Positions 2,148 through 64,000 of a stretch of 64,000 bases of DNA are shown piece by piece (the stretch's first letter is position 1; each line of letters opens with the position of its first letter). The stretch spans positions 12,030,238-12,094,237 of the forward strand of contig OZ316892.1 in assembly GCA_973895155.1 (NCBI GenBank). Reading direction: 5' to 3'. This DNA comes from Marsupella aquatica. Lineage: Eukaryota; Plantae; Marchantiophyta. The notes under the pieces were generated by a model. That model made no database searches. It worked only from the letters and a program-made list of their open reading frames with translations, and had not been told where the DNA came from. The position numbers were made by a program, and so were the translations under genes.

Positions 2148-2345
2148 AGACTTTTTACTTTTGTGAAGGACACCTTGAGTAGTTTGGCATGAGTAGCAAC
2201 TTACCACTTTGTGAGACTTTTTACTTTTGTGAAAAATTCCCTGAGTAGTTTGTGCATGAGCAACAACTTACCAGTTTGGGAAGGATGCTTCATTTTTTTA
2301 AATGACCCCCTGGGTAGCTTGTCATTGAGCAACAACTTACCAGGA
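2148..2345. repeat. Degenerate ~65-bp tandem repeat (about 3 copies)
   Basis: Recurring ACTTTTTACTTTTGTGAA..GAGTAGTTT..CATGAG.A.CAACTTACCA. Confidence 0.7.
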
Positions 2346-6832: not shown

Positions 6833-7176
6833 TGTTAGATATTGCTCTAGTCTTGTGACTCATGAGCTAACTACAGTTAGGCTAACTCGGGTTAGGACTT
6901 AGCTAATGTTAGCGGTAGTGCTGTTGTGCATATAGCCAGGGCTGATGCCAGACCCTGGTGGAACTTAGGCTCATTGTTACGGAGCTAGTTGAGAGATAGG
7001 AAGAGCTTGTGCTGTGGATGCTTGGTATGGCCGGTCAGCCTAGAGTGCAGTAAAGCTCTTGTGTGTTCCCGTGGACGTAGCCTCATGTGGAGGTGAACCA
7101 CGTATCTCTCTGTGTCGACTATTGTGCATTGGATGGTTCATGGGCTTGCCGTTGCGAATGTCGTCTATGCTCAACA
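6833..7176 (+). mobile_element. Solo LTR, family A (copy 1)
   Basis: TGTTAG...CTCAACA ends; flanks CTAGC/CTAGT (4/5 TSD); its 3' ~220 bp clearly match 16242-16464 (reverse complement) and 32140-32374. Confidence 0.85.
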
Positions 7177-8763: not shown

Positions 8764-10158
8764 ATATATTTCATGTAAATTCTGGATGTTCTTGTGGAAC
8801 TACCTTCCCCTACAAGGATAAAATCTATAGTTACGTGGACCCGCAGAGGAGCTCAATGCTGACTTCTAGAAAAGATAGATAGATTGAATCTATGCTCAAC
8901 GTCTAGAAATTTCCTTGCAGAGTGTCATCAAGCACTCTGTAGCCGGACCTCCACTAGGTCATGCACGTGAATTAGTTTCTCTTCATATGAAAACATTGCA
9001 AGAGTCCACACTTTTAGCTCCAAGATGCTGTCACCAACTTTCTCAGAAATCAGTCTGGTACAAAGAAATCTTACATCTTAAGGTGGTTGGTTTGCGTACT
9101 TTGCCACTTACTTGGCTGCAGCAGAGACAAAGATTGATATCATCATTCCAAAGACAATTCGAAGTTGGCAGGTCCATTATTCCATTGTAGCATGACCTGA
9201 AAATTATGATCAGATGTATTCGCATACTTAACACATAATTTTCTGCTACCATGATAGGCCTATAGAGAAAGGCCTCTGGACGAGTACCTACAGAATCAAG
9301 ATAGCTTCTACGGGACGTTCAATTTGTGTGGCAGCCTCGCCTCCAGGGCAGTGAATGTCAACATGATTGTGTCATCGACCCCTAGACATTAAAATATTCT
9401 ACCGTAAGTCTTTCTTTTTCTCTAAAGTATTGCCTGTTTCTTTCCAGTCCACAATGTTGAATTGTTGACCCATTCCTAGTGGACCGAAGGTCCTCATGGA
9501 TTCAGCAGTCAAAGAGTCGGGAAACACGGCTAGTGGACCCCACTTAAGAAACGCGTTGTCTGCCCAAAGCGACTTAGAAATGGCCCATCTTCCTCTGTGA
9601 ATTGACCGTGAGCACATATGAGCATTATCAGTAGTGCTTTGTGACGGAGGAGCCCGGGGTTGATCAGCTACAGTCCCTAGACTAAAAGCCAGATCCTGAG
9701 ACCGGCATTGCTGAAGCAGAAAGACGAGGTTGACGTGAGTGACGGATGTGTGTGGGTCAAGATTGAGAATCGCTCTCACGGTCAATTCACGGAGGAAGTC
9801 GATCAGCGAGTCGAAGAATCCATTTCAGCTCTGCATTGCATAAAAAGTTCATGATTCTGCATCCTTCCTTGAATTCAACGTGATCTAGCATCTAAAATTT
9901 TCTCATCTCGATCCATTGAAAATGATTCGTCTGATTCTAGGGTGCAATTCACCTTGTCAGCAGCTGAAAGTATCAGATGTGTTTCCATCCTCCGGCTTCT
10001 TCTCTCGAGAATCGAGTGCGTCGGCATATCTCAAGTCCTATATCTTCTGTGCTTACCAAATGTAAATGATGAGATCTCTACAACTGGACAGTACTACGGT
10101 AGCATCTTCTTCCCTTCGAATAGAGAGCCCACGTTCTACCCAGGTTTTTCCTAGCGTG

Positions 10159-13100
10159 ATGATAATAACAGAGGTGAACTCCTGCGTAGACCTGGTGCTT
10201 AAAGCTTCCAAGTTTGCTAACGAGCTCAAAGATGGTTGGTACAAAGGTTCCGCAGAGGTGGATTCGTTCAAAGCCCAAGTCTCGATACTTCGTCAGAAGC
10301 ATGATCAGTGGAGCGCTCAGCTACGAAGACATGGGATTTCGGAGGACGAACGACTTTTGCGGGCAGTGCAGGCAGCCTTTGAGATTCTGGACGAGCAAGA
10401 GCAATACGTGAGCAGACTCCAGAAAAGTCCTCTCTTGCGATTGAGGAGAAAGGCATTCCCAGGCCAGCTTACATATGTTTTGAGAAATGTTGCGGACATC
10501 GTGGACGCTGGGCCTCAGTTGCTGACCACAAGGGTTAATACGTTTGATGTATTGGAAAGAGTCGTAGCCCAGACTCCGGCACCATTGCCTTTTATTCCGG
10601 ATCCCAATTACGTCCCGATTACAAACTCTGTTTTGGAGATACGAACTGCGTTGGAGGATGAACAAGGCCCTCGTGTAGTGACGGTGTTTGGAGGGCCAGG
10701 ACTGGGAAAGAGTAGTGTGGTGAAATATTTAGCACTCCAGTACGAAGAGGAGAGAAAGCAAGGCTTAACACAACCCCAGCGCAAGGCACTCAGTTTTCCA
10801 GATGGAGTGTATTATTTGTTTTGCGGAAAGGATGCTCAAGACAGAGTGAAGCAGTTGGAGGTAGAGCTGGTCGAGTGTCTAGGCTTTGGACCCGGTTCAA
10901 GTTCAGCTCCACCGAATGACCAGACGGGTAACGGAATGCAGGAAGGCGCCTATATTCAGCTACCGTCACATCAAATGAAGCTTAGATCACGCTTAGCTGA
11001 GCAGTACTTGCTCATTGTGCTGGATGATCTATGGGAGCGGAAGGCATTGCAACACCTGTTGCAAATGGTTCCTGCGAAGGGAGTACGATATCTCGTAACA
11101 TCCCAGATGAAAGAAATTTGGGGTCCGGCAGCAAAAATCCAGATGAGATATCCGACTGTTGCAGAAGCTAGGCAAATCATGTCTAATTATACAGACGGAC
11201 TTCCGACGAAGGGAGAATTTCCTCACAACATTCAGGTACAACTTCAAGTCGTGCTACTGTCATTTTCTGTCAGAGATCAGGGAACTGCGTGTACATGTCT
11301 TTCTTTTACTTGAATTACTATTGTCATTTTCTGTCGGACTTCAGTAACTGCCTGTACATGTCTTTCTTTTACTTGAATTACTATTAGCAGCCTTTGCGTC
11401 GTTGGTTGCTGCCATCCGTTAAAATTGTACAAGCACTGTGATCTGAAACAGTATTAGAAACTGTTATCTATTAAGCCTTTACTGATTTCGAGCATTTTCC
11501 GTCCCTTGTAGACTGTGACGGATGCAATCATAGAGAACGTAGGTTACCTTCCACTATCTTTGGCTGACGTTGGCACCAGCGTCAACAGTAGCAGAGCAAC
11601 TGATGCAAGCCATTGGAAAGCGATCAATGATAATTTAAATCATGTTCTTCTTCACGAGGACGACTTTCAGCTCAGTCCGGTTATGTATGAGAAATCTTAC
11701 AATCTCACATCCGGGGCCTCGATGATGCTCATGGTGGAGTCTTTAAGTCCAGATGCAAGGCGACTCCTCTTCATGATTGCACTACTAGGGGGCGACCATT
11801 TGCCAGAAACCCTGGTGAGGTATTTTTACAAACGGATTCAACCGGCTCAATCCACAGATATGGACAGGCTGAACTACGAGAACCAGGAGAAGTACCTGGC
11901 AGATAGGTCATTGGTAGATTTGCACATGCAAGGAAATGCGTCAAGGTGGGAGAGGATGCCCTACATGCACATGCGGAGAACGGTGGCTGGCCATTGCTTG
12001 AGGATGCGCCTCATTCGGGAGAAGAATTAAAACTCTCGATGTTCGGTCTATCGCTGCTCAAATCTTAGAAAGCAGTAATCAAGGTGGAACTGAAGTTATT
12101 GAGAAATGGGATGCAGAGGCAACCCTTGTTAAGATCTTGAGTGCAGTTTACTTCCAAGAACCGTTCACGGACGTCGTAGTAAATAGTCTCGACAGGCATC
12201 TTCGAATCCTCGATGATGGCACCATCCCTCGGAACGTCAGTACGGGCATCGATCCACATGATTTTGTGAAAAGAAGTACGACAAGGTTCCAAATCGAAGG
12301 TCTAGTTTCGCTTATTGACGTCGATCGTGAAGATCCTGCTTGGAAGCAGCAAGCATATGGGTATGCCAAAAAGGTAAGAATACTAATCCTATTCTGCCAA
12401 ACTATTTGCCTGCAAATGCCGTACTACATATCTTAGCTGAAAAATCAACACTGATTAGTGATGCAACAATGTCCAGTTTCTTCGTTCTACGTTTTCAGCG
12501 TCTGCAGTAAAATTGAAATCCACACTGACTTGGTGCGCAACCGACCTGAGAACAAGATGTAAGATGGAACAGAATAGAAATTCTTAAAGCCAATGGAACT
12601 GCCAGCCTATCAAGCTTGGATAGAGCTCACAAAACCAGAATGTCAACATTAAAGCCATCATAGCATACTTAGTAAACTGTAGATACACTTCGTCTTTCAT
12701 CTGGTTTCTGCCAATCATAAATGATTTACTAATGACATTTACATTTCTTATTTGGTGATAGATAATTATCAAGCTAGCCTGTCAAGGGAAATTGGACGAC
12801 TACAGTATGGCAAGCTTGCTTCAACTCCCTCAAACAACCTCAGTTGCTTGTGAAGTACTCGAGAACTACGTTTGGGCCTTTCCTTCCTACGATGGAACTG
12901 AAACATTCTCAAGTGCACATGGCGAGACAATTAATACTCTGCTCGCTCTCTTGCATGATGATGGTGTATCAACCACAAGACGAGTTTGTGTAATCAGGGC
13001 TCTTGCGAGAGTGCTTGACTACGAGAGCAAAGACATCATCCTCAGCGTGGCCGCTAAGTATATGGAACTGCTGGCCATGGATTTCAGTAACTCTACACTC

Positions 13101-15672
13101 CAGATTGGTGTAGTGCAAAACCTTTATGTAATTGGTAACTCTCCCACAAGAGCAGCATTACTAATGGGCGAATTTACAGGAATTTTGGATCTCCTCATGG
13201 AGTTACTAGTCTCCGGGAAAGACTTCAAGGTCCGAGTTTCTGCAGCAGATACCCTCCGCTGGTTCTGTCAATGGAAGTTTACTGCCCTGAAAGTAGCAGC
13301 CATACCAGACGCTCTCGAAAAGCTGTTCAATATGTTCGTCACAACAGAGACACTCCAACAGGTTGCATCCCCTGAGCCGCAATATGCACCCAAATATGCA
13401 TTTCTCGGCAGCCCTTCATATTTGGCAGGACAGATTTTGGGTGACCTGTCGTGCGTGCAAGAGAACAGGATCAAATTTCGTGCCCTCCAGAGCAGGTTAG
13501 ATGGGTTTGGACATATCCTGGTTCGACTCAAGGGAACTTGGCAGGGCACTCTTAGCGAGAAGCGTCGGCCTGGATTGAGGGAACGAGCTTCTACAGCTGC
13601 CGGAATACTGGCTCAGCTAGCACGGGACAAAGAGCTGAGACATTCGATTTCATTGCCTGGGCTGGAGGAAGGTTTGCTATTCTTGCAACTTATCCAGACT
13701 GCTATGATCCCCCCGTATTTCCCGCGGGACCTTCGGGTCAATAATTCTACGATGGCGCTCACAAAGCTATTTTCCACTTCAACAAACCCAAGATCGAGAT
13801 GCATCCCGACTTTGAAACAGGTACAAGAAGTATTTTCTTCTGACGAACGTCCTCCAGCGATGAGAGCGGCGGCATGCTTCAGAATATATTGGAGTCGTGT
13901 TGAAATCCATTGTGAAATGGGGGCGTACGCTGAGGCTCTTGAAAACTTGGAACTCGCTCAACTGCATCTGGACCAGTGCCGGACTCCCGATCTTGACCAG
14001 GGCCGGACTTTGGGCGATTGGTACGTGACGACGGAAGGCTTGGTGGCGACGGGGTTTCTCGCAACAAAAGTGTTGAGGTATGCAACTGCTTCGCTTGTGT
14101 ATTTAATCAAATCCCATTTGGATTGGAAAAGTCTTGATTGAAACGCGGAGATAAGTTGACACTAGGAAAAAAAATATTTTAAATCATCAATTTCATCATC
14201 AATTTCATGTGTAAGTTGTGAGGGATCGGGACAACTCTCACGTTCTAATTTTGAGCTTGGCAACTACAACGCTCGAAGTGTAGCCACCTACGTGATGTCA
14301 ACAATTGTTACCAAAGATAGGATAGACAAGAAAAATCCCTCTTCTCCAGGCTGCTAGAGGCAGTACAATCCAACCGATTGGTTCATAATGCCTTTTTTTC
14401 AATTCATAAATAAGTTATTTTTAAGGTTGAAGCCATGGTCCCAGGAGAGCCCACTGCCCGCAGGATGCTGCCCAAATTGTCGCAGTGAGATTAACTTTCC
14501 AATACGTCTTTGTGCTGAGGTGGAGTCGCTGGGTTTGAAACCGGCTGCTGCCCCAGTACTTTTGACATAAACCCCACGGGTTGGGTGCAGAAGAAGCTTT
14601 TGACACTTAGAAAGAAAATGATGATTTTTGGTTTTTGCGGGCGTTCCATGCAAACAAGCAGCGGGCAGTTTAGATCACAAATGACTTTCCAGGTTCTCAT
14701 ATGGGTTGTCCGAAGATCACAAATGACTTTCCAGGTTCTCATCTAGCTGAATGCAACCCTTGCGCACCTGGTTCATCATACCTTTAGATAATTTGAAATA
14801 AATGATAAATTATGGTCATTAGATCAAGTTAGGATATATTTTTGTTTCTAATTTTGCAGTGCAATAATTATCCTGGCTGAATAATCTTCCCGGCAGATAT
14901 GGGTTCGCCCCATGCAGGTTTTAGGCTTCCAGATATTTAAAAAAATAAGAAAATTCCAAGTTGCTCCAAGCACCCTAAAGCCCTTTCTGGAGGGTAATGT
15001 CCCCAGAAAAGCGCCCCAGGGAAGCCTGCCCTATGGGCGGGCTTTCCCCACAACAATGCCCTTGAAAGAGGGCTTCACTGTGCACTAGCTTGTGTTGTGG
15101 CGTGTGAGGAATGAAGTTACTTTTGTCTCATGCTAATATTATCTTTTGCACTTTGACCATTCAACTGACTTACTAATCTGTCTCCACAGCCGTACTAGAA
15201 GACTTCTTCAAATTTTGTCAGGGCATCATGCAGGCGCCTTACTGGATGCAAATGAGGAGGTTGAGAGCGCCCAATTGCATGCAAATGAGAAGGTTGAGAT
15301 CAACAACTACAGCCATTTCTGGCTCTTGTTATCTGCTTTGAATGAAAGAGGAATCTTACGGAGGCTCTGTGGAGATTTACAAGGTGTGGAGATTTACAAG
15401 GGGCGCTTGATGACTTGGATGCGGCTTATCAGCTGGTTCAAGAACATTGGGCCTTTAAGTACTTCCTTTTTAATATCCTCAAGCATCGAGGCTACGTCAA
15501 ATATTTGATGAATGACGAAGGTGGAGCTAGGGCAGACGCGGAAGCTGCCCTACAGCAACCTCTCCAATATACCGTTCGCACTATTACAGATGAGAGGTGG
15601 TTTTGGGACATAGATATACTACCGATAAACTATCTGGGTTATTTTTCTTCCTCTAAGCCAAGTCTCTTCTAG
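10159..15672 (+). pseudogene. NB-ARC (STAND/NLR-like) gene: N-terminal helical domain - NB-ARC - ARM-like repeats - TPR; two frameshifts
   Basis: Exons 10159(or 10066)-11235, 11512-12373, 12762-14077 and 15190-15672 with phase-compatible GT..AG introns. P-loop VFGGPGLGKS, Walker B LLIVLDDLW, RNBS-B RYLVTSQ, GLPL-like YLPLSLA. Exon 3 has ARM-like helices; the C-terminus has TPR motifs (RGILRRLCGDLQGALDDLDAA, RGYVKYLMNDEGGARADAEAAL). Lesions: +1 frameshift near 12002-12027 and a 17-bp tandem duplication (15368-15401). Confidence 0.85.
11257..11386. repeat. ~64-bp tandem duplication in intron 1 of the NB-ARC gene
   Basis: TGTCATTTTCTGTC..AACTGC.TGTACATGTCTTTCTTTTACTTGAATTACTATT occurs twice. 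Confidence 0.8.
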
Positions 15673-26149: not shown

Positions 26150-27299
26150 ATGTCTTCATCTTCTGAAATCTCCACCACAGACTCGTCCTCCTCTGATGAA
26201 GATACACCACCTCCACCTCAACATCACACGACCGCACCTCCTCCTCGCGGTCCACCCCGTCAACTTTGTGAATGTTCCAGATGTGTGGGTCAGGTTTCCC
26301 AAAAATCTTACATATGTGCCCAACATATTGAGAGATATGGGCGTTGTGGACGTCATACGGCAGGGGCTTCTTCATCTCATATGGTAAGTGTTATGCCTTA
26401 GTTTTCCTACCCTATTCCCATTACTCAATGGTTGAAGGTTTGCAATTTCACACCTACTTTTGTTTGTTTTGGTTTCGGTGGAATAGGTATCCAATAGGCC
26501 TAGACCTGCGGCACAAGCACCCTATGTCCCATCACAAGGTGTTCTAGATGCTATAGGCAATGCATTCTCAAAAGCCTTGGGTCTAGCAAGGCCCACCAGT
26601 CCTAGGGAAGTTGGGGTTGAGGCTATTGTCCCAAGAGGGAGAAAGCGTTCCAAGAGGCGGGCCCGAGGGGATACTGATTTGTACAAGGCAGTGGTTACGG
26701 GTCGGTGGGGTGATTGTGAGTTCACTGGCAGATGTGTCCCTATCATCAAGGACTGGGATCCTGAGACTCTTGGTTTGCCACAACAGCTTTCCTACGGTGC
26801 GGAGGTAGAGGTTTGGGGTAGACGTTGGGTTATCAAACCTTCCACAGTTGGGGATAAACATGGCTATGGATTTTTTGCCTGTGAGGACATCATTGTGGAC
26901 GCCGAGAGTGGTAGAGGTGGACGCGGCCGAGAGGGGCCTACTTTGTTTCCTTATGGTGGACCCATCTACAAGAGAAGACATTGGAACATGATCCTTGCAC
27001 AACACCCTGAGTGGAAGACTTATGCATTGGACATGGATACTTTTGATGGAAACACTAGAAGGTATAGTGAGCAGCGTGTCATAGATGGGGACCCCATACG
27101 GACTGGGAATATTGCTGGTTTCATAAACAGTACCGTGGGGACTCGCCCTAAGCGTAGGCAAAATTGTGAGTGGGTTTTCATTGAGGGTCCTCCGCCAGCA
27201 CCTTATGGCCAGACATATCATCATGACCATTGCCTAGTTGTAGCAACAAGGACCATTAACTCAGGGGATGAGTTATTTACTCAATATGAGTGGGATTAG
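26150..27299 (+). CDS. Two-exon SET-domain protein (348 aa) with an N-terminal transposase-associated Zn motif, inside CACTA 1
   Basis: Exon 1 26150-26383 (CECSRC..HIERYG; donor GTAAGT, phase 0); acceptor AATAG| before 26487, in frame. SET motifs: IKPSTVGDKHGYGFFACEDI, PYGG, IDGDPIRTGNIAGFINS, NCEW, ATRTINSGDELFTQY. Confidence 0.85.
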
Positions 27300-37303: not shown

Positions 37304-38320
37304 AAAGCAATCAAAATGGGATATGCATTTCAGCGGACGCGACATGCTCAGGTCACCCATCTCTTCCGATCCTTTAATTGGGTTCTACTTTCATTTGGAA
37401 CTATGAGCTAGGTGCCCATTTCCCTTGACATGTGAACTCTTCAAATTTTCTCAACTAATTGGTCACCCATCCCAATTGCTATTCCTCCAACACACTAGTA
37501 GAAACCGGGGGGTATTTAGACCCCATTAAACGACTATTCAGTACCGTATAGGACTTGGAAACGACTGGGAAGGACTCCAGTCCTTTATAGGACTGCGAGT
37601 CGTATGTTTTGTTACTATAATCAACTGAGTCCTTTATAGAACTGGTTTATAAGTCGTTTAATAGATTGGATTTTCAGTCTATTTTAGTCTTTGTGTGGGT
37701 AGCTTTGGTGAGTCGTTTTCAATCTTTTATGGGCTGCGATGGTGAGTCGTTGGGAACGACTAAAAAGGTTATGGAGGGTAGTCTTTAAATATACTTTGTG
37801 GGGTATGTATAAGTCTTTCATGTCAACTGGATATGAGTGATGAAGACCCCACTATACTACTTGGAATGAACCCACTCTTGTGCACAAATAACATATTGCA
37901 TTCATGTTTTATTGTGTACTTGGAATGAACTCACTCTATAAGTTCACCATTCATTATGTTAACATTAGAATACATAGTTTCATAAAGCCATCTTCTATAC
38001 CATGTACACTAATATGAATTCACAGATTCAAACTTCATAGACTACAAAGAAGGTCACAAAGTATTCCTCTATACCATACACACTAATACTGAAATGATAC
38101 AAAACAGATTCAAGTATCATAGACAATCACCATAGAGCCATAGTTTGACATCAATCACTTGTTTCATACATACAGAATTCAGAAATATCAATGTCACACA
38201 CAACGGCTCCTTCATCCTCTTTACCAAATGGAAAAATTGGTACAGATATGTCTTGGATCTTTCCAAGGCAATGTCAAAATGTGACACAATTCACATGATT
38301 CTATCTACACTTGCATTCAG

Positions 38321-41300
38321 TCACTGCAGACTAACACACTCTGATGGCCAAAGCACAAGAGATCCTACTGCATCTGCAATTATTTCCTGAGGTGGATCAT
38401 CGTCTCTATTCGGAAATGGCAAATTACAATCAGATACAATCACTGTAGTCAACAACACTACTACATGGTCATCCGGGACCACTTTGCCATGGAATTTTGC
38501 ATGGTCCGGTCGCAAAATGCCTGTACCCACACATACCTGCGAGTCATCCTCCCATGATAGAAGATTATGGACTGGCTCTGCTGTGGCTATCACCTCCACC
38601 TTACCCTGGTTGTTTTTCTTGGCTTTCCTGGGTGGCTTATACATGACATTATTCATACCTTGGTTGCGAGTCATGACTTTGGCACGAGTGTTTTGTGCTG
38701 GTGATCGAGAATTGGCTACACTCTTCTTCAAAGAATCTGCATCCATATTTGACACTTCTGATTGTGTAGCAGGATTTCCCTGCGACATCATCTCAGTATC
38801 TGCCAACATTGTACTTGCTTCAATTGAAGCATCTACAATCTTACTTGCATCCAATGTTGCTCCCAAGTTTCGACGTCGCTTCACCCTGCTCCCACTTGGT
38901 TGAGAGTCTGTCAACTCTGCATCAACTACAATTCAGTGTCATGTCCAACATAAGTCAATCACTCATCACATGTGCTAAATGTACATGTCACCAACCACAA
39001 AGTTGTCACTATCTCCTTACCATTATGAACAGCCTTCTTCCCCTTCTTTGCCATTGCCATATGCTCCATGTCTGCTTCTGTTGATCAATAAACACACCAC
39101 AATATTCAAGTTGAATCTATTAACCACTGAATTGTTTCTCAACATTCATATAGAGGAATTTAAAGCATCAGCTTACCTGATACCTCCTTGGCTATGGTCA
39201 CTGAGGCACTGGGCACATCTTCTTCATTATTGCTCTTTGAATCACCTGATACATCAATCATGATGTCACTTCAGATCCCAGTTCATCCAACCAGTTCTTA
39301 CAGAAAAGATTACCTCCAACCGGCTTAAGCTTCACAAAACTCCATGCACTTTTCAAATGTAATGTACTGGATCATAGCAGGTTACCTGTCTCAGCAACCT
39401 TCTTGCCCTTCTGCTTACTGATTACAGGGTCCTTCTCTGCCTCCACTCTTCTTGCATTCAAACCATTCACTCAATTCATGAAAACTTACTTCTAACATTT
39501 GAACATAGGACACAATGAACAATGGGCCGGTGTCATTTCCATACCTGTGTCAGATTTGCCAATTCCCTTTTTTGTTAACAAGGGCACACTTTGTACAATG
39601 TTGCCCTCATTGTTTGGTTGGGAACCACCCAATTTTTCAATCACAAGCTTGAAATTAGATTCCACTGATGCAAGAAGGTTCGCTACAGATGCCTCCACAA
39701 TATCCAAACGATCAGCCAATTTACTTTCCACTCGAGGGAGTCCACACTCTAATGACTTCAACCGTTCACACATCTCTGTGAGAGTTGTAACAGTTCCCTG
39801 TCATAACACAACTTACATATCTCAGATAACTGTCCCCAAGAACTGGTTGCTTACTTCCTACTACATTTCTTTCTGATGCTCAAGGCCAAATAGTCACAGA
39901 ACATACAGAATTACAACATAATCACCTGTTTGGAAGTTACACTTGTCACCTCACTCCTTTGTTTCATGAACTCCTCTCTCACTTCTTGTGCTGATGGTTC
40001 TTCACCTGTCAATTTCTTCTGCAGTCCACATCAACATACATATGAATGAAACCAAGTGTTGATTGTCAATGAAAATGTAATAATGGTAGCAAGATGATAA
40101 GTTTGAGGCTTACTATCAGGCATGTCACTGCCTTACTAATTGTTCTTTCACTGGAGCATAACTTCCTCTCCCAGCCTGTGAAAGGTGTTTCACTTTGCCT
40201 CGAGCATTTGACATCAGTTCACTCTTGCTCTGTCCAGCCTCCGACATGAACCCTTTGATTAACCATGTCCATTGATCCAGTTCCAATGATGGGGGTGGTG
40301 GCATTCTCCTGTTAGAACCATTGTCTATCCACATCCTTTTCAACCTATGCCTCTCTTGTTTCAAAATCCTCATTGCATAATCTGATATGCAATCTTCAAC
40401 TGGGCCCTTACCATCATTACCAACATACTCCCACCGTTCAAGAATGTCCTTGCAGATAGCAGCCCAATCAGCTTTGTTCTGACTCCTAAACTCTGTAATG
40501 CTCAAATCTAACCAACGCAATACTTCTCCTCTTAGGTCAGAATGCCAACGGTTCTTACCATCACATGTGGGAGTTATCCAACCTTCGGAATTCACTTCTA
40601 CTTTACCAAATTTGTTATTGTCTCCTGCCTTGGTACTCCCTGAAGCGCTACTAGGTGTCCCTCCACGGCCTGGTGTCCCCCCACGGCCTGGGGTCCCTCC
40701 ACGGCCTGATCTCCCCCCACGGCCTAGATTGCATTGTCCAAACCTCCCTGGAGTCCCTGCACATTTACAGGATCCATTTACAGTCACTTACATTAGGTAA
40801 GTATGAATCATAAATCCCGCTGCCAAATATACAGTGGACTTCAGAGCAATTCTGCAATGACCAAGTTACCTCTCCCTTGGCGCATAGATGGTTCTGGACC
40901 ACCTGTCCTATTGCTTTGTCTTGATGAATTAGGGGCATTTCTCCCGCCTGTGAATGATTGCCTCCTATCTGAACGTGGATGGCCTTTGTTGTTTTCGTGA
41001 TTGTCCCAATCAGAGTCTGCATACCAACAGGTACATGCCACACTCATGGACCTGTAAGATAAACTCTTTGCCCTAGCTACACATCAGATAAGTGCATATT
41101 GAGCTAAATCTCTACTACCATCACAAAATCACTAGCACAAGGCACTTACTTGTCCAATCATCCTCCTCACCTTTCCATTGCCCTCTGTACCCGTCTCTAC
41201 CACGCTCTGGGTGTTCATATTCATCCCATCCATCTTCTGCTCCATCATAGTCATCATCATAATTATCAGGCGTCCCTTGCCAATAACTCTGGCTCCTTCT

Positions 41301-41669: not shown

Positions 41670-44600
41670 CTATTGCAAATCATCAACCTCATCATATTCC
41701 ATTTGCCCAGGTTCATCATATGTCTCTCTCAATGTTAAGGGGATGTAGTCAGTCCCTGCCCGAGTTGGAAGTACAGTCTCATGACTAGGATGCTCGAATG
41801 CAGCATGGTCATCCAAACTGAACTCTACTTTACTTCCATCCATCCGCCTGTTCCGTGCTTGGCTATGGCATACCACCCTCCAACCATGTGACTCCTCCAC
41901 ATCTGCAAAGAAAGCCTGTTCAACTTGGCTAGGGAAAACAAAAGGCTCAGACCATTCTGGTACTCTGGACCTAAAATTGGCCAACAAGAACCCATCATGA
42001 TCACGCTTCATGGTGGCCCTTGGTCTCTGCCACTCTGATTTCACCCATGATCCCTTCATCAATATCACTGGGACACTTGTGTTACCATAATTCAACACCC
42101 AAATGTCGGTCAACTCCCACACGTAACCCATCTTCATCCACCCCCTCTGTTCTTCAGAGGTTCTCTGCTCAAACACAGAAATCAAACCACAATCATATGA
42201 TACACAATGGTCACCCTGCTCATCCCTCACTCGATAATGATTTCCATAAGCTCTCATCCGTTTGTAGGTCAGAATAGACAATCGTGGTGGCACAGATAGA
42301 AGATACAAATCCTTCTCCATATCTAGGTGATGTCTACTATGCTCTCGAATTGTCACCCGAATCCACTGCTCGAACTGTGGGAAGGGATCCTGCTGCCCAG
42401 AGTGTGCAGCTTTTTGCATATCATATTCCCTACAATATGAGGTACAGGCATAGTTAGGTCTAAACAACACATGACAACCTAAGATCACCCTTGGAACAGA
42501 CAAGAAGCATCACAACAAAGGCAAGTCAATTCAATCACTCACCTCCACCATGGTTGCATAGGCTCTGTGTTTGCCAGCACATATGAATGAGCCTTGTCTT
42601 GAATCGCAACAGGCAGCTGAACAGCACGTCCCACACCTTCAACAACCTCGCCACTCACTCCATCATCTTCACCAGATTTCCAAACTCTTGTCATAGCTTC
42701 ACCAGACCCAGCCATGTACTCTGTTAGGAATCCCAACGTCTCATCCTTAATGTACCCCAATGCCATGGAAGCCTCTGGCCTGTAGTATGTTCTCACATGA
42801 CCTTTCAACAACTTCATGTATCGCTCCATAGGGTACATCCATCTGGTACTGACTGGCCCATACTGCCCTAGCTCTTCTACCACATGGATTAGGAGATGAG
42901 TCATAACATCAAAGAAAGCAGGGGGGAAGTATATCTCCAAGTCACAGAGGACATAAGCAGCATCCTGCTTCAACTGCTCCAATCCTTGGGGATCCCACAC
43001 TTTCACACATATATGGCGAAATACATTGCACAGTCGAAGAATGACATTACGGACTGGTTTCTGCATGAGACCTCTGAGGCATAGGGGCAGAATGTGCTGC
43101 ATCAACACATGGTAGTCATGTGTTTTCATACTGCCAAGTTTATTCTTTGTAATATGCTTCTTGAAGGCACCAGCATAGCCAGAGGGCACTTTCAGACAGC
43201 TCAATCTATACAAGAATGTCTTCCATTCATCCTGTGTGCACACATAGGGAGCTTGGAACTTGAGAAGTACATTGGGATTGCTTGCATGGGGCTTCAACCA
43301 AAGGTGAGGGCGAATCCCCTTCTGTTGCATATCAGCTCGAACTGCTCCTGTATCTTTCTCACCCGACAAGAACTTCAGCAAGCTCTCACAAATATTTTTC
43401 TCAATGTGCATGACGTCCACATTGTGTTTGCTGGGCTCGAATTCCTGCACTCCACAAAGCAAAGAATTCAACAACAGAAACACTAATTAACCACATAGGA
43501 GGATTGTAACCAACATCAATCCACCATTGCTCCAATCTAAAATTGCAATCATACAAGGGCTGGAGGCTAAGTACATTACCCTCCAGTACTCCAACTCCAA
43601 GTCCATCAAGGTCTGTCTTTTCACACCGTGTTTCACCACTGGATCCTCAGGTTCTCGATCAGTGGCACTTCTCTTGTCCCAATCAGCCTTCCTGGCTGCC
43701 CACCTCAGGACTTGCTCTCTGGTGACCCTCTGTGGTGGGCCACGAAGCTCTGTTTTGTTGTTGAAGTGTGCAATTTGAGACCGTGTGTGCCTGTAAGGAT
43801 GATCAACAGGCAGATACCTTCTATGCCCCTGAAATTTCATACTGTGCAGGGCATGCGACCACTCACTTGTCACATTTTTCCCACATGGTGTGCACCCCAC
43901 ATAGCCCTTTGTCACTCGTCCAGATATGATGCCATGGCCTGGGTAATCTGCTATATCCAGCAAACAAATTGCATGCAATCTAAAGGGGCTGGGTCGAAGA
44001 AGCCCCTTCAGAACATCATGGGTTAACACCCCTTCTATCCACAAAGTCTTCCACTCTTCCACTGCTGGAGCCAACATGATATCTATGAATTGCTCGGTCA
44101 CAGAAGCTGGTCCAGGGATTAACAGCACCATCATGACAAAAAACCTCTTTGTAGTCATCCATGGGGGAAGGTTGTAATTTAGCAGCGTAACCGGCCAACA
44201 TGAATAACGGTTGTTTTTGTCTCCAAATGGGTTTACTCCATCCAGTGATAGACCAAATCGAAAGTTCCGCTTCTCTGCAGCAAACTGTGGCCACCTCTCA
44301 TCAACAAATTTCCAATGGTTGGAATCTCCAATGTGACGCTGCAGGCCATCACTGCTCTTGTTATCAGGAGTCCATGTCATCAGCTTGGAAATGGCAGGGC
44401 ATCTAAACAGACGTTGTAGTCTAGGAATGAGAGGAAAATGACGAAGAACCTTGGCAGGGTGTGTACATTTCCCTACATTCTTGTACCTGTGCTTACCACA
44501 ATGAGGGCATGTCAATTTATCTGCATGCTCTTTGCGAAAGAGAACACACCCATCAGGGCATGCGTCAATAGACACATAGTTCAGCCCAAGGTTAGACATC

Positions 44601-45370
44601 AATTTCCTAGCCTCGTACATATTTTTTGGAATTGAATTACCATCTGGTAACATATTTCGGCGCAGGAAGGTCAACAACTCTGTCACAAATATATTGGGAA
44701 CATTGTGATTGCCACAGATGTTCAACAACAACACGACAAAACCCAGCTTGGAGCAGTTCGACCCCTCGTAGATAGGAATGCAAGCTTCTTTGATGTGTTT
44801 TGGGCCCCCAAACACCCACTCCCTCTCTGCTGCACCTTCCCCAATGTCAAAGTCAGGTTCAGCTTGGCCGTCGCCAATGTGTGGCTGCGGTTCATTGTCC
44901 TCTTCTGATTCCACTATGTCGTAAAAAGCATCAAGGTCTTCAAAAATCTCTTGAACCATTCTTGGGACATCCATCCCACCGTCCTCAGTGACTGCCTCTA
45001 CATCTCCATCTTGGTCATCCACGTTCTCATGTTGGACCCCAGGACCATCCTCTGCACAGTCTATGTCCTGCTCTACGTAGTCTCTACGCCTAGCTGTATT
45101 AGAATCCACAAAGTCAGCTCTCCACTCTTCATCAGAGGAGTCTTCTTCTGCTGGTACATTCCAAACCCTCCACCGAGGGTGCCTTTCATGCCGCAGCAGG
45201 TGAAGGTGCACAGTGTTCAAACTCAACGACTTGAATCCTTGGCACTGTGTGCATGGGCATCTCATCCTCCTACTCCTACCTTGGGCGGCCCGGGCTTGTT
45301 CACGCATCCACAATTTAGAATCATGATGCCTAATCCTAAATGGGTTGTGAAGAGGCAACCTTGGAGCCAT
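41670..45370 (-). CDS. Apparently intact TnpD/Tnp2 transposase (~1150 aa, 3 exons)
   Basis: Exons 45370-43580, 43444-42543 and 42429-41670 join in frame. CPCTQC..HLHLLRH, DACPDGC, GLSLDGVNPF, IADYPG, DVMHIEKN, MKTHDYH, PPAFFDVMTHLLIH, WMYPMERYM, EPFVFPSQVEQAF. Confidence 0.93.
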
Positions 45371-45696
45371 CACTATACACACGCACTCAGCACCCTGTCA
45401 TTTTATTATGCAAGTGAAAAATACACTTCCTGTTAAGGATTTCACCCCCGACTGTACTTGCCAAAATACGTAACGTTCCAAAAAAACAAAAAAACAAAAA
45501 ATATAGGTGCCTGAGTCATGTACCTATTCTCAAGTGAATGAGACAAAATTCCTAAATGTTTGAGGGTGTCAACTCCTCCGCTGTCCTCACATGTACTGCC
45601 TCTGCACGTACATCCATGACCATATCAGAGTCCAATCATGTATAGTCATAGACACAAGTGCCAGGTGCGAGACCGGTGTGAGATGTCCTCATCTTA

Positions 45697-46170
45697 CTAC
45701 CACATCAAATACGGATACCAATCCTGTTGTCGATGCCACTCAGCCCTGAGGTACTCAGGCATGTACATTAAGTCATCAAGGTCTAAACCCTGCTCATGCC
45801 ATGGTGGTCTTCGATCCGTGCCTACAAGCAGTGGCAGCAGTGCCCTCCATGGTGCACATGTTGCTACCAAGTCCCTCCACTGGGTACTAATTAGTCTATA
45901 TTTGCAGATATCTTGTGCGCCAGACACCACAAGAACCCTCGGCCAGACATGTGTAAGAACTATATCATCTGCCAAATCAGGCAACAAGGAACCACCTACA
46001 GCATCGTGCTTGTCTAACTCATCTGCTGAAAAGTAAATGTCCTCTTCCGACTGTGCATCCTCATTCACCACAGCATTCACAACACATCCAAGGTCTACAG
46101 GCATTATCTCGGATGGAGCTACACTCTGTCTGGTTACCAATCCACACAAGTAAGCCCAAGCAGTAGCCAT
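45697..46170 (-). CDS. Small F-box-like protein (CACTA 2 cargo)
   Basis: SLLPDLADDIVLTHVWPRV..DICKYRLISTQWRDLV fits the F-box consensus; no C-terminal substrate-binding domain recognised. Confidence 0.65.
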   Translation of the reverse strand: MATAWAYLCGLVTRQSVAPSEIMPVDLGCVVNAVVNEDAQSEEDIYFSADELDKHDAVGGSLLPDLADDIVLTHVWPRVLVVSGAQDICKYRLISTQWRDLVATCAPWRALLPLLVGTDRRPPWHEQGLDLDDLMYMPEYLRAEWHRQQDWYPYLMW

Positions 46171-46406
46171 GCACGATGCAACCCGTAGGAGGACCCTACA
46201 TAGGGCCTGACGGTCTGGAAGAGGCAGCATACCCACCAAAGTCTTCAGCCAAACAGAGCCCAGCAAGTAGATTCACAGTCACACCCCACGCAGCAGGAAA
46301 CAACAATCACTTCAACTGCGACCAACCATGACAAGATGAGTTAGTTCAAGGATCACATTTATTACAAAATTGTGATTTATACAAAAATATGAGGGACTCC
46401 TACTCC

Positions 46407-47255
46407 TCACTCTCTCCCACCTTTGCTAAGCATACATCTCCGCTGAATCTTGGAGGGCCAGGCCTCAAAAATATCAAAGTCCCAAGCATTCTGTCGCTTC
46501 CCTCTAGCTGCTGATTCCAGAAGCCAATCAGGGGAAAGCACCCAAAGATTGTTGTTCATGACAAAATCACGCACTGTTGTCTTAAAGAATTTTCTGCATA
46601 TTTTCATGTATGACAGACCTACAACATGAGTGGAGGTTTCTGTTAGACTCTCCTCCACTGTCCCACCTAGCTCAACAACTATAGACTTGTACAATCTGCA
46701 CTTAGTCTCCCCAATTCCTTCTTCTGCAAATACCACACTGAACCCCTTCATAATGGTATTTCTCTCCTTGCCATGCTCATTCAATATAGCATCTGCACGC
46801 ATAGGATGGTGTCCTATGTTGACAACAGGTCCATATTGGACAGAAGCAAAGTTGGGTTTCTCTGCCACTGCTTCATAGGCTTCCTTTTCAGCCAAAGCCT
46901 CTGCAGTGGCCTCCTCACTCTCCCACAACTCATATTGCTCAGTACTCTGTACACACCTATGTTTAACAGAATCGGTCAGCCAAGAGACTTCAACTACTTT
47001 TAGACCTTGGTTGGTAATGGCAGAATCAATGAAGGACCATGACCACTTGTTCATCACATCCAGCCATGTCCCCGCAACAACATGTGTAGTCTGTGGAGTG
47101 ATGTCCTTGACTTCAGTCCCATGGAACTCTGAGAATCGTTTTTGTACGATTGGCCAACTCACTTGGGTGAACCCATAGTGGCCAGGAATCAAAATGGCTT
47201 TGATTCCAGCCAACAGAGGCGGGTGGTCAACCTTTGTACGTTTCCTAGAGGCCAT
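46407..47255 (-). CDS. Tandem BRCT-domain protein (CACTA 2 cargo)
   Basis: Two repeats: LAGIKAIL..HG..ITPQTTHVV..VVEVSWLTDS and MKGFSVVF..LGG..LTETSTHVV..VLSPDWLLES; N-terminal RKRTK NLS-like motif. Confidence 0.85.
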   Translation of the reverse strand: MASRKRTKVDHPPLLAGIKAILIPGHYGFTQVSWPIVQKRFSEFHGTEVKDITPQTTHVVAGTWLDVMNKWSWSFIDSAITNQGLKVVEVSWLTDSVKHRCVQSTEQYELWESEEATAEALAEKEAYEAVAEKPNFASVQYGPVVNIGHHPMRADAILNEHGKERNTIMKGFSVVFAEEGIGETKCRLYKSIVVELGGTVEESLTETSTHVVGLSYMKICRKFFKTTVRDFVMNNNLWVLSPDWLLESAARGKRQNAWDFDIFEAWPSKIQRRCMLSKGGRE

Positions 47256-47853: not shown

Positions 47854-48534
47854 TCAAAGCCAAGAAATGTGATCTCTCATGGGAGTGTGCAAAGTAGGAT
47901 CTATGGCATGGCGATGACAATAGAAGATCCATCGATCAACACCATGTGCAGAGTGATCATAGATGTGTCTGTCACAAGCATAGCCTTCTGCTTGACGCTC
48001 CTTCAAACAATGAAAGTGCCACATGGTGGGACACCTAACACAGTGGACTATGTCCACCCAGAAATCTTCATCGTGCTGACCACATGCCTTGCACTTATGA
48101 AGTGGGCAAGCTGTGGCAAGATCGGGCAAACATGAAAAACAAAAGAACCTCACACAATATCTGTCAGGGCATTTCCTAACAAGTGGTGGAGCATCAACAG
48201 AGCCCTCATAAGACCCCAACTTCCCACACTGTGCACACTTAGCCTGCTTCTCCAAACAATCAGTGCACATCCAGCCTCCCTGGTGTGCTGACGGGAGGCC
48301 CACCCCTGGACAGTTGTTTTCTGCAGCAAGGTCAGACTCTGGGTTGAGGTGGAAATGCCTCATGCAAGGGCCCTCACATATGGCTAAGCCACCACCATCG
48401 TCACAAATGGCACAACAATGAGCTGCCTTCTGGAAAATCTGACTTGCGGAGAAGTTACTACCATCTGGCCCAACTACACCTGTGTTGCTCACCTCTATCC
48501 CCCGCTTCTTGGCTCGGATTTTAGGGCGTGCCAT
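47854..48534 (-). CDS. Stand-alone EDM2-type atypical PHD-finger cassette (CACTA 2 cargo)
   Basis: CAICDDGG.L..CEGPCMRHFH, CAQCGKLGS, CPLHKC..C, CVRCP..WH..CL and YCHRHAIDPTLHTPMRDHI closely follow the PHD region of plant ENHANCED DOWNY MILDEW 2 proteins as recalled; basic N-terminus. Confidence 0.8.
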   Translation of the reverse strand: MARPKIRAKKRGIEVSNTGVVGPDGSNFSASQIFQKAAHCCAICDDGGGLAICEGPCMRHFHLNPESDLAAENNCPGVGLPSAHQGGWMCTDCLEKQAKCAQCGKLGSYEGSVDAPPLVRKCPDRYCVRFFCFSCLPDLATACPLHKCKACGQHDEDFWVDIVHCVRCPTMWHFHCLKERQAEGYACDRHIYDHSAHGVDRWIFYCHRHAIDPTLHTPMRDHISWL

Positions 48535-49203: not shown

Positions 49204-49776
49204 CTACAGCGTGTGATCCAAACATGTGTAGACACCAAAGTGACCGGTGGTGGGGTCTGGGAGGGCAAGACAAGTGACATTGCCAGGCACACTGCAGGAT
49301 GGCGAGTGGTTCCAGATGATACATTGTGCTCTGTGAAAAAACCGACATCCAAGAGAACGGTCATCCAACTCTAGGCCAGAAGCCCTACAGGCAGGACAGT
49401 CATACTGGCAACTGTGCACACACCCTTGGGCCCTAATTTGTGGCGGGTCATGTACGAGAGACAAAAATACCAAGGATGTTGGGAAGGGTGGAGAAGCAGG
49501 TACAGGGCGGCTGTAGTTATTCCTGGCAACAATTGGGTACTCAAAGTACCATGCAGACTGGGCTGGAAGGATCCCAAGTCTGACATACTCAAGGCGCAAC
49601 ATCTCTGCCTTGCGTGCAAGCCGCACATGTTCAGCATTGCGGGTCCTCACCATAAGTGTTGCTTTTGTGGAGTGTCGTGTGTTCACGTCCTCTGATAAGC
49701 ACCTTCGATCAGCAAGGTGAGCAGGAGCTGTACTTGCCTCACCAACAGCAACCAACCTTAAATTATCAGTTCCCAC
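49204..49776 (-). CDS. Possible further cargo ORF, Cys/His-rich C-terminus, unknown function
   Basis: 190-codon ORF co-oriented with the cargo row; non-ATG start in the track, so it would need an upstream exon; no recognised domain. Confidence 0.25.
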   Translation of the reverse strand: MGTDNLRLVAVGEASTAPAHLADRRCLSEDVNTRHSTKATLMVRTRNAEHVRLARKAEMLRLEYVRLGILPAQSAWYFEYPIVARNNYSRPVPASPPFPTSLVFLSLVHDPPQIRAQGCVHSCQYDCPACRASGLELDDRSLGCRFFHRAQCIIWNHSPSCSVPGNVTCLALPDPTTGHFGVYTCLDHTL

Positions 49777-59999: not shown

Positions 60000-62900
60000 G
60001 TTAATGCATGAAATAGTTGGGTATTCAGCATCAATGACCCCATTTTCTGTCATTGTATGGAATTTATGACACAACACACAAATGAGCCAATGAGGAACTG
60101 CATCCCTCCAAACAGAGCCTTTCCATTGTTTAGGGTTTAGGTTTACACTCTAAACTCTAAACACCTCTACCCCTAGCCCTGGCCAGTTGGGTCATTTTAA
60201 CCTATTTCCTCAATGACAGCATGAGGGACTCCTCTAATGACCCCATTTTGCGTGATTTGGTACTCCCATATCATAATCACAATGACATTATAGGAGGTCA
60301 TTATTTGACATTTCTGACGTAGAATTGTTCACAAATGGCCCAATGAAGCACAAGTACCTCCAAAAAGAGAACCCCCATATCCCAAAGTGCAGGTTTATGC
60401 CACAACTAATGGATGGAGAATAGTATACAGTAGAGTGTACTGCACCCGGAGGCAGGTTCCCAGCTCTATGTAGTACCACATTTATGACTCCACAAGGGAC
60501 CAATGTAATGACCACAAGTCTGGTCATTTGACCTATATGACATCCTATATGACCGTTTCAATGACCCTATTTGTAGTCATTGGCATTTATGACACAACTT
60601 TGTTCCAAAATGACCTAATAAAGATTACACTACCTCCCAGAGTGCCCCGTCACAATTTATTTGCAAAATATCCCCAAAATATCATATCCCCCATCCAAAC
60701 ACCATCACAAACATGACATAGTTAAATAGAAGGACCACAACCTTCCATTGGTGTTGCGCTACCTCTTGGAGAGAGAAAACAAATGGCTCGATTTGCCTTT
60801 GCAAATGATGGTATTAATCCTTGGTGACACTTTTGGCAAATCACCTCAAAGTTGTACGACTTGGGAATGATTTCCCCAAGGTTGCATCATGCCTTAAGTA
60901 AACATGAAAACATGTGTCCAAAATGTTCATGTAACTAACAACTAGTGGTTGGACAATGATGAGTATAGTGTCCCGCACCTAGTGGAGGGGTTACCACCTT
61001 CATGTAGGGCCCCATGGCGGGCCTCATGGCACATTGGGGCCCACCCAAAGTTCCTAGACCTAAAAGGGTCATTTCTACTGGTACATAATGACATCATGAG
61101 GGACCTGTCTAATGACCTCATATGCAGTCATTTTGTACAAATGACATCCAAAATGACTCCCAAAATGACCCTTAGTGTAGTCATTGGCACTAATGACACA
61201 ACATTACTCCAAAATAACCCAATGAAGATTACAACACCTACTCACAATGCCCCGACACTATTCATATGCAAAATGGAGTATCCCCATCAAAACATCAACA
61301 CAAAAATCACACACTTACATAGAAGGACAACAACCTTCCATTGATTGGTGACATTGCTTTACTTCTTGGAGAGACAAAACAAAAGGCTCAATTTGCCATT
61401 GATAATGATGGTATTCAACCACGGTGACACTTTTGGCAAATCACTCCAAATCTGTATGACTTGGGAGTGATTTCCCCAAGGTTCTATCATGCTTTAAGTA
61501 AACGCAAAAAGACGGCTCCAAAGTGTTCATGGCACAACTAGTGGTTGGACAATGATGATTATAGTGTCCCGCACCTAGTGGAGAGGTTGCCACCTTCATG
61601 CAAGGCCCCATGGCAGTCTAGGGCCCACTTCCAATCCTTAGCACCAAACTGGTCATTTATGTTGGTCCATAATGACACTATGAGGGACCTCTATAATGAC
61701 CACATATGCAGTCATTTGGTCCAAATGACCTGCAATATGACTGCCAAAATGACCCTTACTATTGTCATTGGCTTTAATGAACACCATTACTCGAATATGA
61801 CCTAGTGAAGATTACACTACCTGTTGGAGTGCCCCCTCGCATTTCCTTTGCAATGGAATAGAATATTCCCCACCCAAACACTGGCATAGATATGACACAG
61901 TTAAATAGAAGGACAACAACCTTCCCCTAGTTTTGCCCTACCTCTTGGAGAACAAGAAAACAACTATTATTTCACATGGTGAGACTTTTGGCAAATCACT
62001 CCAAAGCCGTATGACTTGGGAGTGATTTCCCCAAAGTTTCATCATGCCTTAGGTAAATGCAAAAATATGATTCAACATTAATTATGGTGCAACTAATGGT
62101 TGAAGAATAGTAAATATAATATCCCGCACCTAGTAGAGGGGTTTCCAGCCCCATGTGGGGCCACATGGCACTCTAGGGCCCACCTCCAGCACCTAGCCTC
62201 AAACTGGTCATTTATGTTTGTCTTCAATGACTCCACGAAGGACCCCCTCAAATAACAACAAATCCCGTCATTTGACTTATATGACATTCCATATGACGGT
62301 TTCAATGGTCAACCCTATTTGTAATCATTGGTATTTATGACATCATGTCATTGTTCACAAATGACCCAATGAAGGCCCTAGTACCGGGCCTAGTACCTCC
62401 AAAGAGAGCCCCCAATAGATTCCTTGCAAGGTTGGAATATTCCTCTTTCCTAAACCCGCACCCACACGATACAGGGAAGCACGACTCCCCTGCCCATTCC
62501 ATTGGTGCAGCACCACCTCTTGGAGAACCACAAAACAACCCTAAACCCCAAAGGTGCATCATGCCTTAAGTAAACACAAAAACATGTGTCCAAAGTGTTT
62601 ATGTCGCAACTAGTGGTTGGACAATGATGAGTATAGTGTCCCGCACCTAGTGGAGGGGTTCTCACCTCTATGTGGGGCCCCATGGCACTCTAGGGCCCAC
62701 CTCCAACCCCTAGCCCCAAAATGGTCATTTGTGCTTTTCCTTAATGACTGCATGAGGGACCCCTCAAATGACAATAATTCAGGTCATTCCGCTTATATGA
62801 CATGCAATGTGACCATTTTAATGACCTTTGTTGTAGTAATTGGCATTTATGACGGGCAATTGCTCACATATGACCCAATAAAGGCCCTAGTACCTCCAAA

Positions 62901-64000
62901 GAGAGCCAACTTTAGATTCCTTGCAAGGTTGGAATATTCCTATACCCTAATCCCGCACCCACATCATGCGGAGAAGCACCACTCCCCTGCCCATTCCATT
63001 GGTGCAACACTACCTCTTGGAGAACCAAAAAATAGGTTTTATTTGCCTTTGGATGTGATGGTATACATCCATGGTTGCACTTTTGGCAAATCACTCCAAA
63101 GTCGTACGACTTGGGAGTGATTTCCCCAAAGGTGCATCATGCCTCAAGTAAACGCAAAAACATGTGTCCAAAGTGTTTATGTCGCAACTAGTGGTTGGAC
63201 AATGATGAATATAGTGTCCCGCACCCAGTGGAGGGGTTCTCACCTCTATGTGGGGCCCCATGGCACTCTAGGGCCCACCTCAAGCCCCTAGCCCCAAACT
63301 GGTCATTTGTGCTTTTCCTTAATGACTGCATGAGGGACCCCTAAAATGACCACATATCCAGTCATTTGACTGATATGACTCTCCATATGACATTTTTAAT
63401 GACCCTAATTTTAGTCATTGGCATTTATGACGGGCCATTGCTCACATATGACCCAATAAAGGCCCTAGTACCTCCAAAGAGAGCCAGCTTTAGATTCCTT
63501 GCAAGGTTGGAATATTCCTATACCCTAATCCCACACCCACACCATGCAGAGAAGCAGGACTCCCCTGCCCATTCCATTGGTGCAGCACTACCTCTTGGAG
63601 AACCAAAAATATGTTTTATTTGCCTTTGGATGTGATGGTATACATCCATGGTTGAACTTTTGGCACGACTTGGGAGTGATTTCCCCAAAGTGCATCATGC
63701 CTCAAGTAAACGCAAAAACACGTGTCCAAAGTGTTTATGTCACAACTAGTGGTTGGACAATGATGAGTATAGTGTCCCGCACCTAGTGGAGGGGTTCACC
63801 TCTATGTGGGGCCCCATGGCACTCTAGGGCCCACCTCAAGCCCCTAGCCCCAAACTGGTCATTTGTGCTTTTCCTTTTAATGACTGCATAAGGGACCCCT
63901 CAAATGACCACAAATCCAATCATTAGACTGATATGACTCTCCATATGACAGTTTTAATGACCCTACTTTTAGTCATTGGCATTTATGACGGGCCATTGCT
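60000..64000. repeat. Tandem satellite, unit ~520-600 bp, about 7 copies
   Basis: Anchor ACTAGTGGTTGGACAATGATGA.TATAGTGTCCCGCACC at 60941, 61537, 62092 (diverged), 62609, 63187 and 63745; a further degenerate copy near 60405. Confidence 0.92.

Follow-up and report, generated by a model that had tools for sequence, protein, structure and literature searches.

A twin-BRCT gene carried by a CACTA transposon in a liverwort, likely of DNA polymerase lambda type

Results

The locus and its CACTA element

The window analysed here is a stretch of 64,000 nucleotides from the liverwort Marsupella aquatica (contig OZ316892.1, positions 12,030,238 to 12,094,237). On its minus strand an open reading frame (ORF) runs from an ATG at 47255 to a stop at 46407, as one uninterrupted and intronless frame of 282 amino acids with two BRCT repeats (Table 1). 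Pfam gives the following order on this strand: a PHD-finger ORF, the twin-BRCT ORF, an F-box-like ORF, Tnp2, DUF4218, DUF4216 and a Transposase_24 fragment. The combination of Tnp2, DUF4218 and DUF4216 identifies the element around the twin-BRCT ORF as CACTA/EnSpm. A preliminary description of the locus had regarded the twin BRCT as transposon cargo, and at this locus the adjoining CACTA transposase ORFs and the contig depth given below agree with it.

Table 1. Features of the twin-BRCT ORF and of the CACTA element around it (positions in the window).
Feature	Position	Strand	Remarks
Candidate 3' end of element	37493..38000	.	CACTA-type terminus at 37493, then short subterminal repeats
Second CACTA gene fragment (Transposase_24)	40125..40787	-	PF03004 E 0.0055, under cut-off
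CACTA transposase, DUF4216 part	41670..42509	-	PF13952 E 1.8e-5
CACTA transposase, DUF4218 part	42539..43486	-	PF13960 E 2e-27
CACTA transposase, Tnp2 part	43487..45397	-	PF02992 E 1.4e-59, PF13963 E 1.7e-4
ORF with weak F-box-like stretch	45697..46272	-	PF00646 E 0.082, under cut-off; downstream of twin BRCT
Twin-BRCT ORF, single exon	46407..47255	-	282 aa, Pfam BRCT, AlphaFold2 model
BRCT repeat 2, residues 167-264	46464..46757	-	More Pol lambda-like of the two repeats
K185, L188, Y189	46689..46703	-	Positions of human Pol lambda R57, L60, F61 by alignment
Linker, residues 133-163	46767..46859	-	pLDDT <50; length varies (gaps in alignment)
Acidic helix after repeat 1, residues 114-132	46860..46916	-	From the model; T117, E123, K124 family-conserved
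BRCT repeat 1, about residues 15-111	46923..47213	-	W64, W71-S72-W73 and I76 on helix 2, family-specific
Basic, NLS-like start, residues 1-8	47232..47255	-	K/R-rich; judged by eye from sequence
Cargo ORF with NSD-type PHD fingers	47854..48534	-	Own ATG, basic start, intact 226 aa; upstream of twin BRCT

Terminal-repeat searches found no partner terminus with a matching 3-bp target duplication for the end at 37493 within the 64-kb window. The 5' end of the element is placed somewhere from 50.1 kb onward, with a step in contig depth at 50.1-50.7 kb.

The PHD-finger ORF matches PF23004, PF23011 and PF22908 in three stretches (E 1e-5 to 5e-3, all under the cut-off) and gives weak PDB matches to AIRE and NSD2. 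This ORF may resemble the composite PHD fingers of plant EDM2, and a likeness of that kind would make it a candidate heterochromatin reader borne by the element.

Further along the element, a Cys/His-rich frame at 49204-49776 (minus strand) is without a Pfam match and lies where coverage of the element is deepest. A 1-base insertion at 49672 is seen in other copies, and the frame is possibly a fourth cargo gene that is broken in the window copy.

Elsewhere in the window a SET-domain ORF (26487-27299, plus strand; PF00856 E 2e-5, above the cut-off) is directly followed on the same strand by the frameshifted transposase of a second CACTA, at about 27.5-31 kb. With the PHD-finger ORF in the first element, two CACTA families in the window thus adjoin chromatin-type ORFs. 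Another CACTA-type terminus is found from 53884 onward (plus strand), with dense short subterminal repeats at 54.0-54.7 kb; since contigs of sequencing run X2 continue differently at 53883, this terminus probably marks an insertion of its own within a small tandem array. An NB-ARC gene at 10066-14141 (plus strand) has an N-terminal helical region and HEAT/ARM-like repeats replacing the LRRs. The window also contains a copia-type fragment and, at 60200-64000, a tandem array with units of about 560-600 bases and 60-94% identity.

Structure of the twin-BRCT protein

The 282-amino-acid ORF is a confirmed member of the BRCT domain superfamily, with PF00533 matching in two stretches (E 6e-14, 52.5 bits against a cut-off of 21.3) and PF16589 reaching 37.4 bits (cut-off 27.3). 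The AlphaFold2 model, which was built on a 23-row alignment (a 2-sequence model gave pLDDT 31.9), has two confident domains with block pLDDT mostly 80-95 and an overall pTM of 0.45. The four-strand sheet and three helices of the BRCT fold are present in the model, and the tryptophan of helix 3 is W92 and W244, kept respectively in 9 and 10 of the 10 full-length relatives described below. Repeat 2 of the model superposes on a solved BRCT with Z 16.0 and rmsd 1.4 A over 93 residues. The two repeats claimed from the sequence alone are therefore borne out by both Pfam and the model; the translation contains the quoted start of repeat 2 exactly as given, and the first eight residues are K/R-rich and look NLS-like by eye, as had been described. 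Basic starts are common to the window protein, its relatives P0002 and P0003, and the Pol lambda N-termini P0019, P0021 and P0025.

The acidic helix said to join the repeats is found in the model at residues 114-132, but it makes up only part of the join, as about 30 low-confidence residues (133-163) follow it. Fixed packing of the two repeats is absent from the model (pTM 0.45, 23-row alignment). As modelled, the repeats do not form a packed BRCA1-type tandem and would be connected by the helix and the low-confidence residues.

Repeat 1 and repeat 2 of the window protein match over 71 amino acids without gaps and with 24% identity (pairwise E 2e-8). An ungapped match of this length between the halves is expected from internal duplication, which appears to be the origin of the twin BRCT. 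Pfam found no Pol X catalytic domain in the 282-amino-acid ORF or in the scanned neighbouring ORFs. A search for longer relatives of alignment A1 gave none, which is weak evidence in the same direction.

A stand-alone twin-BRCT family

A word-index search gave P0002 as the sole relative, about 61-62% identical to the window protein. A profile search of 1.84 billion proteins rendered 24 matches at E <=1e-3, of which 17 were judged by us to form one stand-alone family on the basis of common motifs and architecture, with the other seven outside it. Only BRCT-type families were found in a Pfam scan of 23 of the matches, one of which was without any. The family includes ten distinct full-length twins of 264-321 amino acids with 15-61% identity (three cluster mates are counted and the near-duplicates P0026 and P0027 are excluded), and both domains are kept in these.

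The helix-2 patch of repeat 1 is conserved to a high degree, with W64 in all ten twins, W73 in nine, S72 in eight and W71 in seven, and T117, E123 and K124 are conserved in the trailing helix. Conservation of the patch and of both domains at 15-61% identity argues for long-term selection. The twins are an old, unnamed and deeply diverged family of stand-alone proteins with a conserved surface of its own. One liverwort and one streptophyte alga are the only relatives named among the close matches. In P0011, P0034 and P0035 both repeats have the tryptophan patch that elsewhere marks repeat 1, which suggests a second, separate duplication.

Transposon context is seen for one family member only, at the window locus. 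Metagenome loci were scanned with two alignments, A1 giving none and A4 giving one contig of 1.4 kb (L001); a scan of viral contigs with A1 also gave none. The contig carries an intronless twin with an in-frame stop that is 98% identical to the intact P0028, and it looks like a decaying mobile copy. No clear transposase was found within its 1.4 kb, the best Tnp2-like stretch having a tblastn E of 0.15, and the PHD and F-box ORFs are unmatched in this contig, which extends only about 460 bases beyond the end of the gene. A candidate F-box likeness in that downstream part was dropped, as it had no support by tblastn.

Copies of the element

Contigs of four public runs (X1, X2, X3 and X5) were matched to the window, where summed contig depth is not equivalent to copy number. 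Depth is high over 37.4-50.1 kb and drops past 50.7 kb. The bin with the twin BRCT has a depth of 2734 in X1, 97138 in X2, 31755 in X3 and 91 in X5, compared with 271-595, 2838-6975, 1898-3596 and 1.3-9.2, respectively, in the four bins at 50.7-53.3 kb. This corresponds to a ratio of 6-68 or more in most pairings, and the depth is of the same order as that of the transposase bins. A 921-base stretch over the ORF is found in 579 X2 contigs in four identity classes; in two further runs, X8 and X9, the ORF is covered in part only. Depth and contig diversity hint that the twin-BRCT ORF has multiplied with a many-copy element family. Among the contigs listed, none spans from the BRCT ORF to the transposase in any other copy. 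One joint in X1 lies inside the ORF, at 46718-46810, at main-subfamily depth and without explanation.

Close copies were compared through 40 of 94 rows of substitutions, three of these outside the ORF. Among the 37 in-ORF substitutions listed, 26 are nonsynonymous and 11 are silent, with no stops, giving a pN/pS of 0.66 (p 0.17 against neutrality). Each indel among the listed close copies adds 3 bases.

Similarity to DNA polymerase lambda

The seven matches outside the family include three verified Pol lambda N-termini, P0019, P0021 and P0025, whose best PDB match is human Pol lambda (E 2e-8, 2.5e-12 and 2e-17). A fourth, P0023 from the alga Mesotaenium, has human Pol lambda as its only PDB match (E 0.2) and a Ser/Pro-rich stretch after the BRCT. 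Arabidopsis Pol lambda is described in PMC4444747 as an N-terminal NLS followed by a BRCT and a Ser/Pro-rich stretch, and P0023 is probably of Pol lambda type because of the same layout and the single match. Both halves of the window protein match P0023. The remaining three are P0020, which is TopBP1-like and has a score summed over four stretches, and P0018 and P0024 (a hypothetical protein), which are assigned to no BRCT type.

The query itself had been used to retrieve the Pol lambda references, which inflates how they score against the window protein; a profile was therefore made from eight twins absent from the original query. This held-out profile gives P0019 36.3, P0021 33.1, P0025 46.7 and P0023 50.6 bits, compared with 26.5 for the best domain of P0020. 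In the reverse direction, a profile of three animal Pol lambda heads gives 38 bits for repeat 2 of the window protein and 9 for repeat 1, and repeat 2 reaches 34 bits in P0006 and 30 in P0007, with the P0020 domains at 7-10. The control in both scorings is one other BRCT protein, the TopBP1-like P0020.

Positions that contact Ku in human Pol lambda

The BRCT of human Pol lambda is described in PMC12056208 as docking on the bridge of Ku70/80, and the isolated BRCT as being recruited to breaks through Ku. According to the same source R57 and L60 matter most for the docking, and catalytically dead Pol lambda stops gap filling only while it is bound to Ku. Binding of Ku by this BRCT is also reported in PMC10657183. 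For plants, PMC4444747 cites earlier work, and so at second hand, in which Pol lambda binds LIG4/XRCC4 through its BRCT and acts at transposon excision sites.

These positions were mapped onto the twins through the alignment of P0025 to human Pol lambda. In the window protein, repeat 2 has K185, L188 and Y189 at R57, L60 and F61, a conservative match, and repeat 1 has S33 at R57 and I36 at L60. An R or K is found at the R57 position in repeat 2 of four of the eight alignable twins, and in two of the eight it is combined with a hydrophobic residue at L60. Both positions are kept in all four Pol lambda-type references. One TopBP1-like domain also has R and L there, so that the motif is not specific. 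A G-I-G loop together with the K/L/Y residues is kept in repeat 2 of the window protein and of P0002, which are 61% identical. The Ku-contact positions are thus conservatively kept in repeat 2 of the window subfamily, neither throughout the family nor in repeat 1.

Discussion

The twin BRCT is an accessory gene of a CACTA element and comes from an old, unnamed protein family. It is of a repair-domain type that was not found described: the term BRCT is unmentioned in the main texts of PMC12730594 and 10.1101/2025.02.11.637652, and no BRCT gene of CACTA/EnSpm or another DNA transposon appeared among the papers listed in a literature search outside Repbase, subscription journals and supplementary files. 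The text of 10.1101/2025.02.11.637652 names, among the accessory genes of such transposons, SET, TET/JBP, adenine methylase and the VANDAL anti-silencing protein. Like Plavaka PAG1-3, the SET of HarbingerS, TET/JBP and the anti-silencing protein of VANDAL, the twin BRCT is an extra gene beside a DDE transposase. Those genes are thought, in the texts consulted, to target host chromatin or silencing and are of chromatin- or DNA-modifying kinds, whereas the twin BRCT is made from an interaction domain of DNA repair.

Pol lambda provides the closest outside relatives by sequence. Its N-terminus (human 2JW5 and 9G9L; Arabidopsis as described in PMC4444747) has the same arrangement of a basic start followed by a BRCT, and its BRCT resembles repeat 2 with the G-I-G loop and K/L/Y at R57/L60/F61. 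The window protein differs in that it has a second BRCT, lacks both an intron and the Pol X catalytic domain and lies inside a transposon, and its repeat 1 has a tryptophan patch and is without the Ku-contact arginine. The phosphopeptide readers BRCA1, MDC1 and TopBP1 also have two BRCT folds per chain. Unlike these, the window protein has a long low-confidence linker and is unpacked in the model, with rmsd 11-24 A to all pairs. The BRCA1-type pocket is given in PMC10386641 as S/T-G in the loop between strand 1 and helix 1 and T/S-x-K at helix 2. In a weak alignment (E 0.13) these pocket positions, S1655 and K1702 in BRCA1, fall on Y27 and S74 of repeat 1, which by this alignment appears to lack the motif.

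The explanation that fits best, and that we adopt tentatively, is an intact twin-BRCT gene in a CACTA element, probably long kept as an accessory gene, that would derive from a duplicated Pol lambda head and act as a two-headed adaptor at breaks. A CACTA lineage would have captured and duplicated the front end of a host Pol lambda, with its basic signal and BRCT, and the product would be a nuclear adaptor at the breaks made by the transposase. Repeat 2 could then serve as a polymerase-free head on the Ku70/80 bridge, and repeat 1, with the tryptophan patch and the trailing helix, could bind a second partner, for example the transposase or a co-carried protein. Host Pol X polymerases might in this way be kept off the ends, or end-joining factors tethered there, and the adaptor would thereby skew repair at the donor site as well as at the target site. 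A role in end joining with repeat 2 placed on Ku70/80 is conceivable, and we hold it with some doubt. The fullest version, in which an old plant CACTA lineage captured and doubled the Ku-binding head of Pol lambda as a modulator of non-homologous end joining, encoded together with a histone reader and an F-box-like protein in one cassette, is unlikely.

The main rival to the end-joining adaptor keeps the Pol lambda origin and assigns the protein a new task, as a scaffold in a chromatin or anti-silencing module of the element together with the PHD-finger and F-box-like products and with no contact to end joining. It accounts for the fact that the family conserves the tryptophan patch of repeat 1 and the trailing helix and not the Ku-contact residues. 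The adjacent cargo is of chromatin type, the second CACTA in the window adjoins a SET ORF, and most of the accessory genes known from DNA transposons are epigenetic (10.1101/2025.02.11.637652). However, the window protein and P0002 both retain the G-I-G loop and the K/L/Y residues at the Ku-contact positions in repeat 2, and the presumed partners, the PHD and F-box ORFs, have no match in the short metagenome contig with its 460 or so bases downstream. Such a scaffold is somewhat unlikely in our view.

The donor itself can be questioned. REV1, XRCC1, PARP or LIG4 might have provided the BRCT, the likeness to Pol lambda being general BRCT similarity. With the family profile the human REV1 BRCT is level with that of Pol lambda in PDB (34.6 and 34.3 bits), and proteins with many BRCTs score higher. 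A two-sequence profile has LIG4 as its top PDB match (E 0.006), with TdT at E 0.29 and Pol lambda absent among its 26 matches. PARP4 and XRCC1 head the fold matches, with Pol lambda missing from the best 50 entries listed; Atlas gives generic BRCT clusters only, all under 0.9. LIG4, whose tandem BRCT binds XRCC4, ranks first in Foldseek and resembles the window protein in having two BRCTs with a long spacer, but it is this layout that gives the rank, with identity of about 15% and rmsd >20 A, and no LIG4 protein was identified among the library-wide matches. None of the seven outside matches at E <=1e-3 was identified as REV1, XRCC1, LIG4 or PARP, whereas three or four are of Pol lambda type and two are unassigned. 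Searches for longer relatives of alignment A1 and of the P0023 BRCT found none, so that no full-length plant Pol lambda is among the references. A donor other than Pol lambda is quite improbable. The likeness of repeat 2 to Pol lambda, proposed in the preliminary description, holds for the outside matches and the held-out profile; it does not extend to the tie with REV1 or to the folds, which do not single out Pol lambda. By sequence a Pol lambda-type BRCT is favoured, as likely rather than settled, and the donor was probably the Pol lambda of the host.

It is very improbable that the ORF is a passive passenger, a host gene or fragment recently caught by one element in the style of Pack-CACTA with the other twins as ordinary host genes: purifying selection among close copies is not significant in the substitutions listed, transposon context is known for one member and L001 is without a clear transposase, but none of the ten twins is annotated by name as a host gene and each is predicted as one ORF. 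Near-identical mates that are truncated or interrupted by a stop occur in several clusters (P0015/P0028, P0008/P0033), and contig depth and X2 contig diversity suggest many copies of the ORF along with the element.

Cut-and-paste transposons rely on the host to repair the breaks they leave behind. If the adaptor at breaks is correct, an accessory gene made from the docking domain of a repair polymerase would be a second front, on which the element acts on break repair itself. If the repair role fails, there is still an unnamed, deeply diverged group of twin-BRCT proteins with its own conserved surface.

The unassigned P0024 (KAL2607684.1 from Riccia fluitans) is a protein of 143 amino acids with a single BRCT and an acidic tail, similar to the algal Pol lambda-like P0023 and to the family members P0009 and P0012. 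From its genomic context one might recognise either a split Pol lambda gene or a stage at which the family had a single domain.
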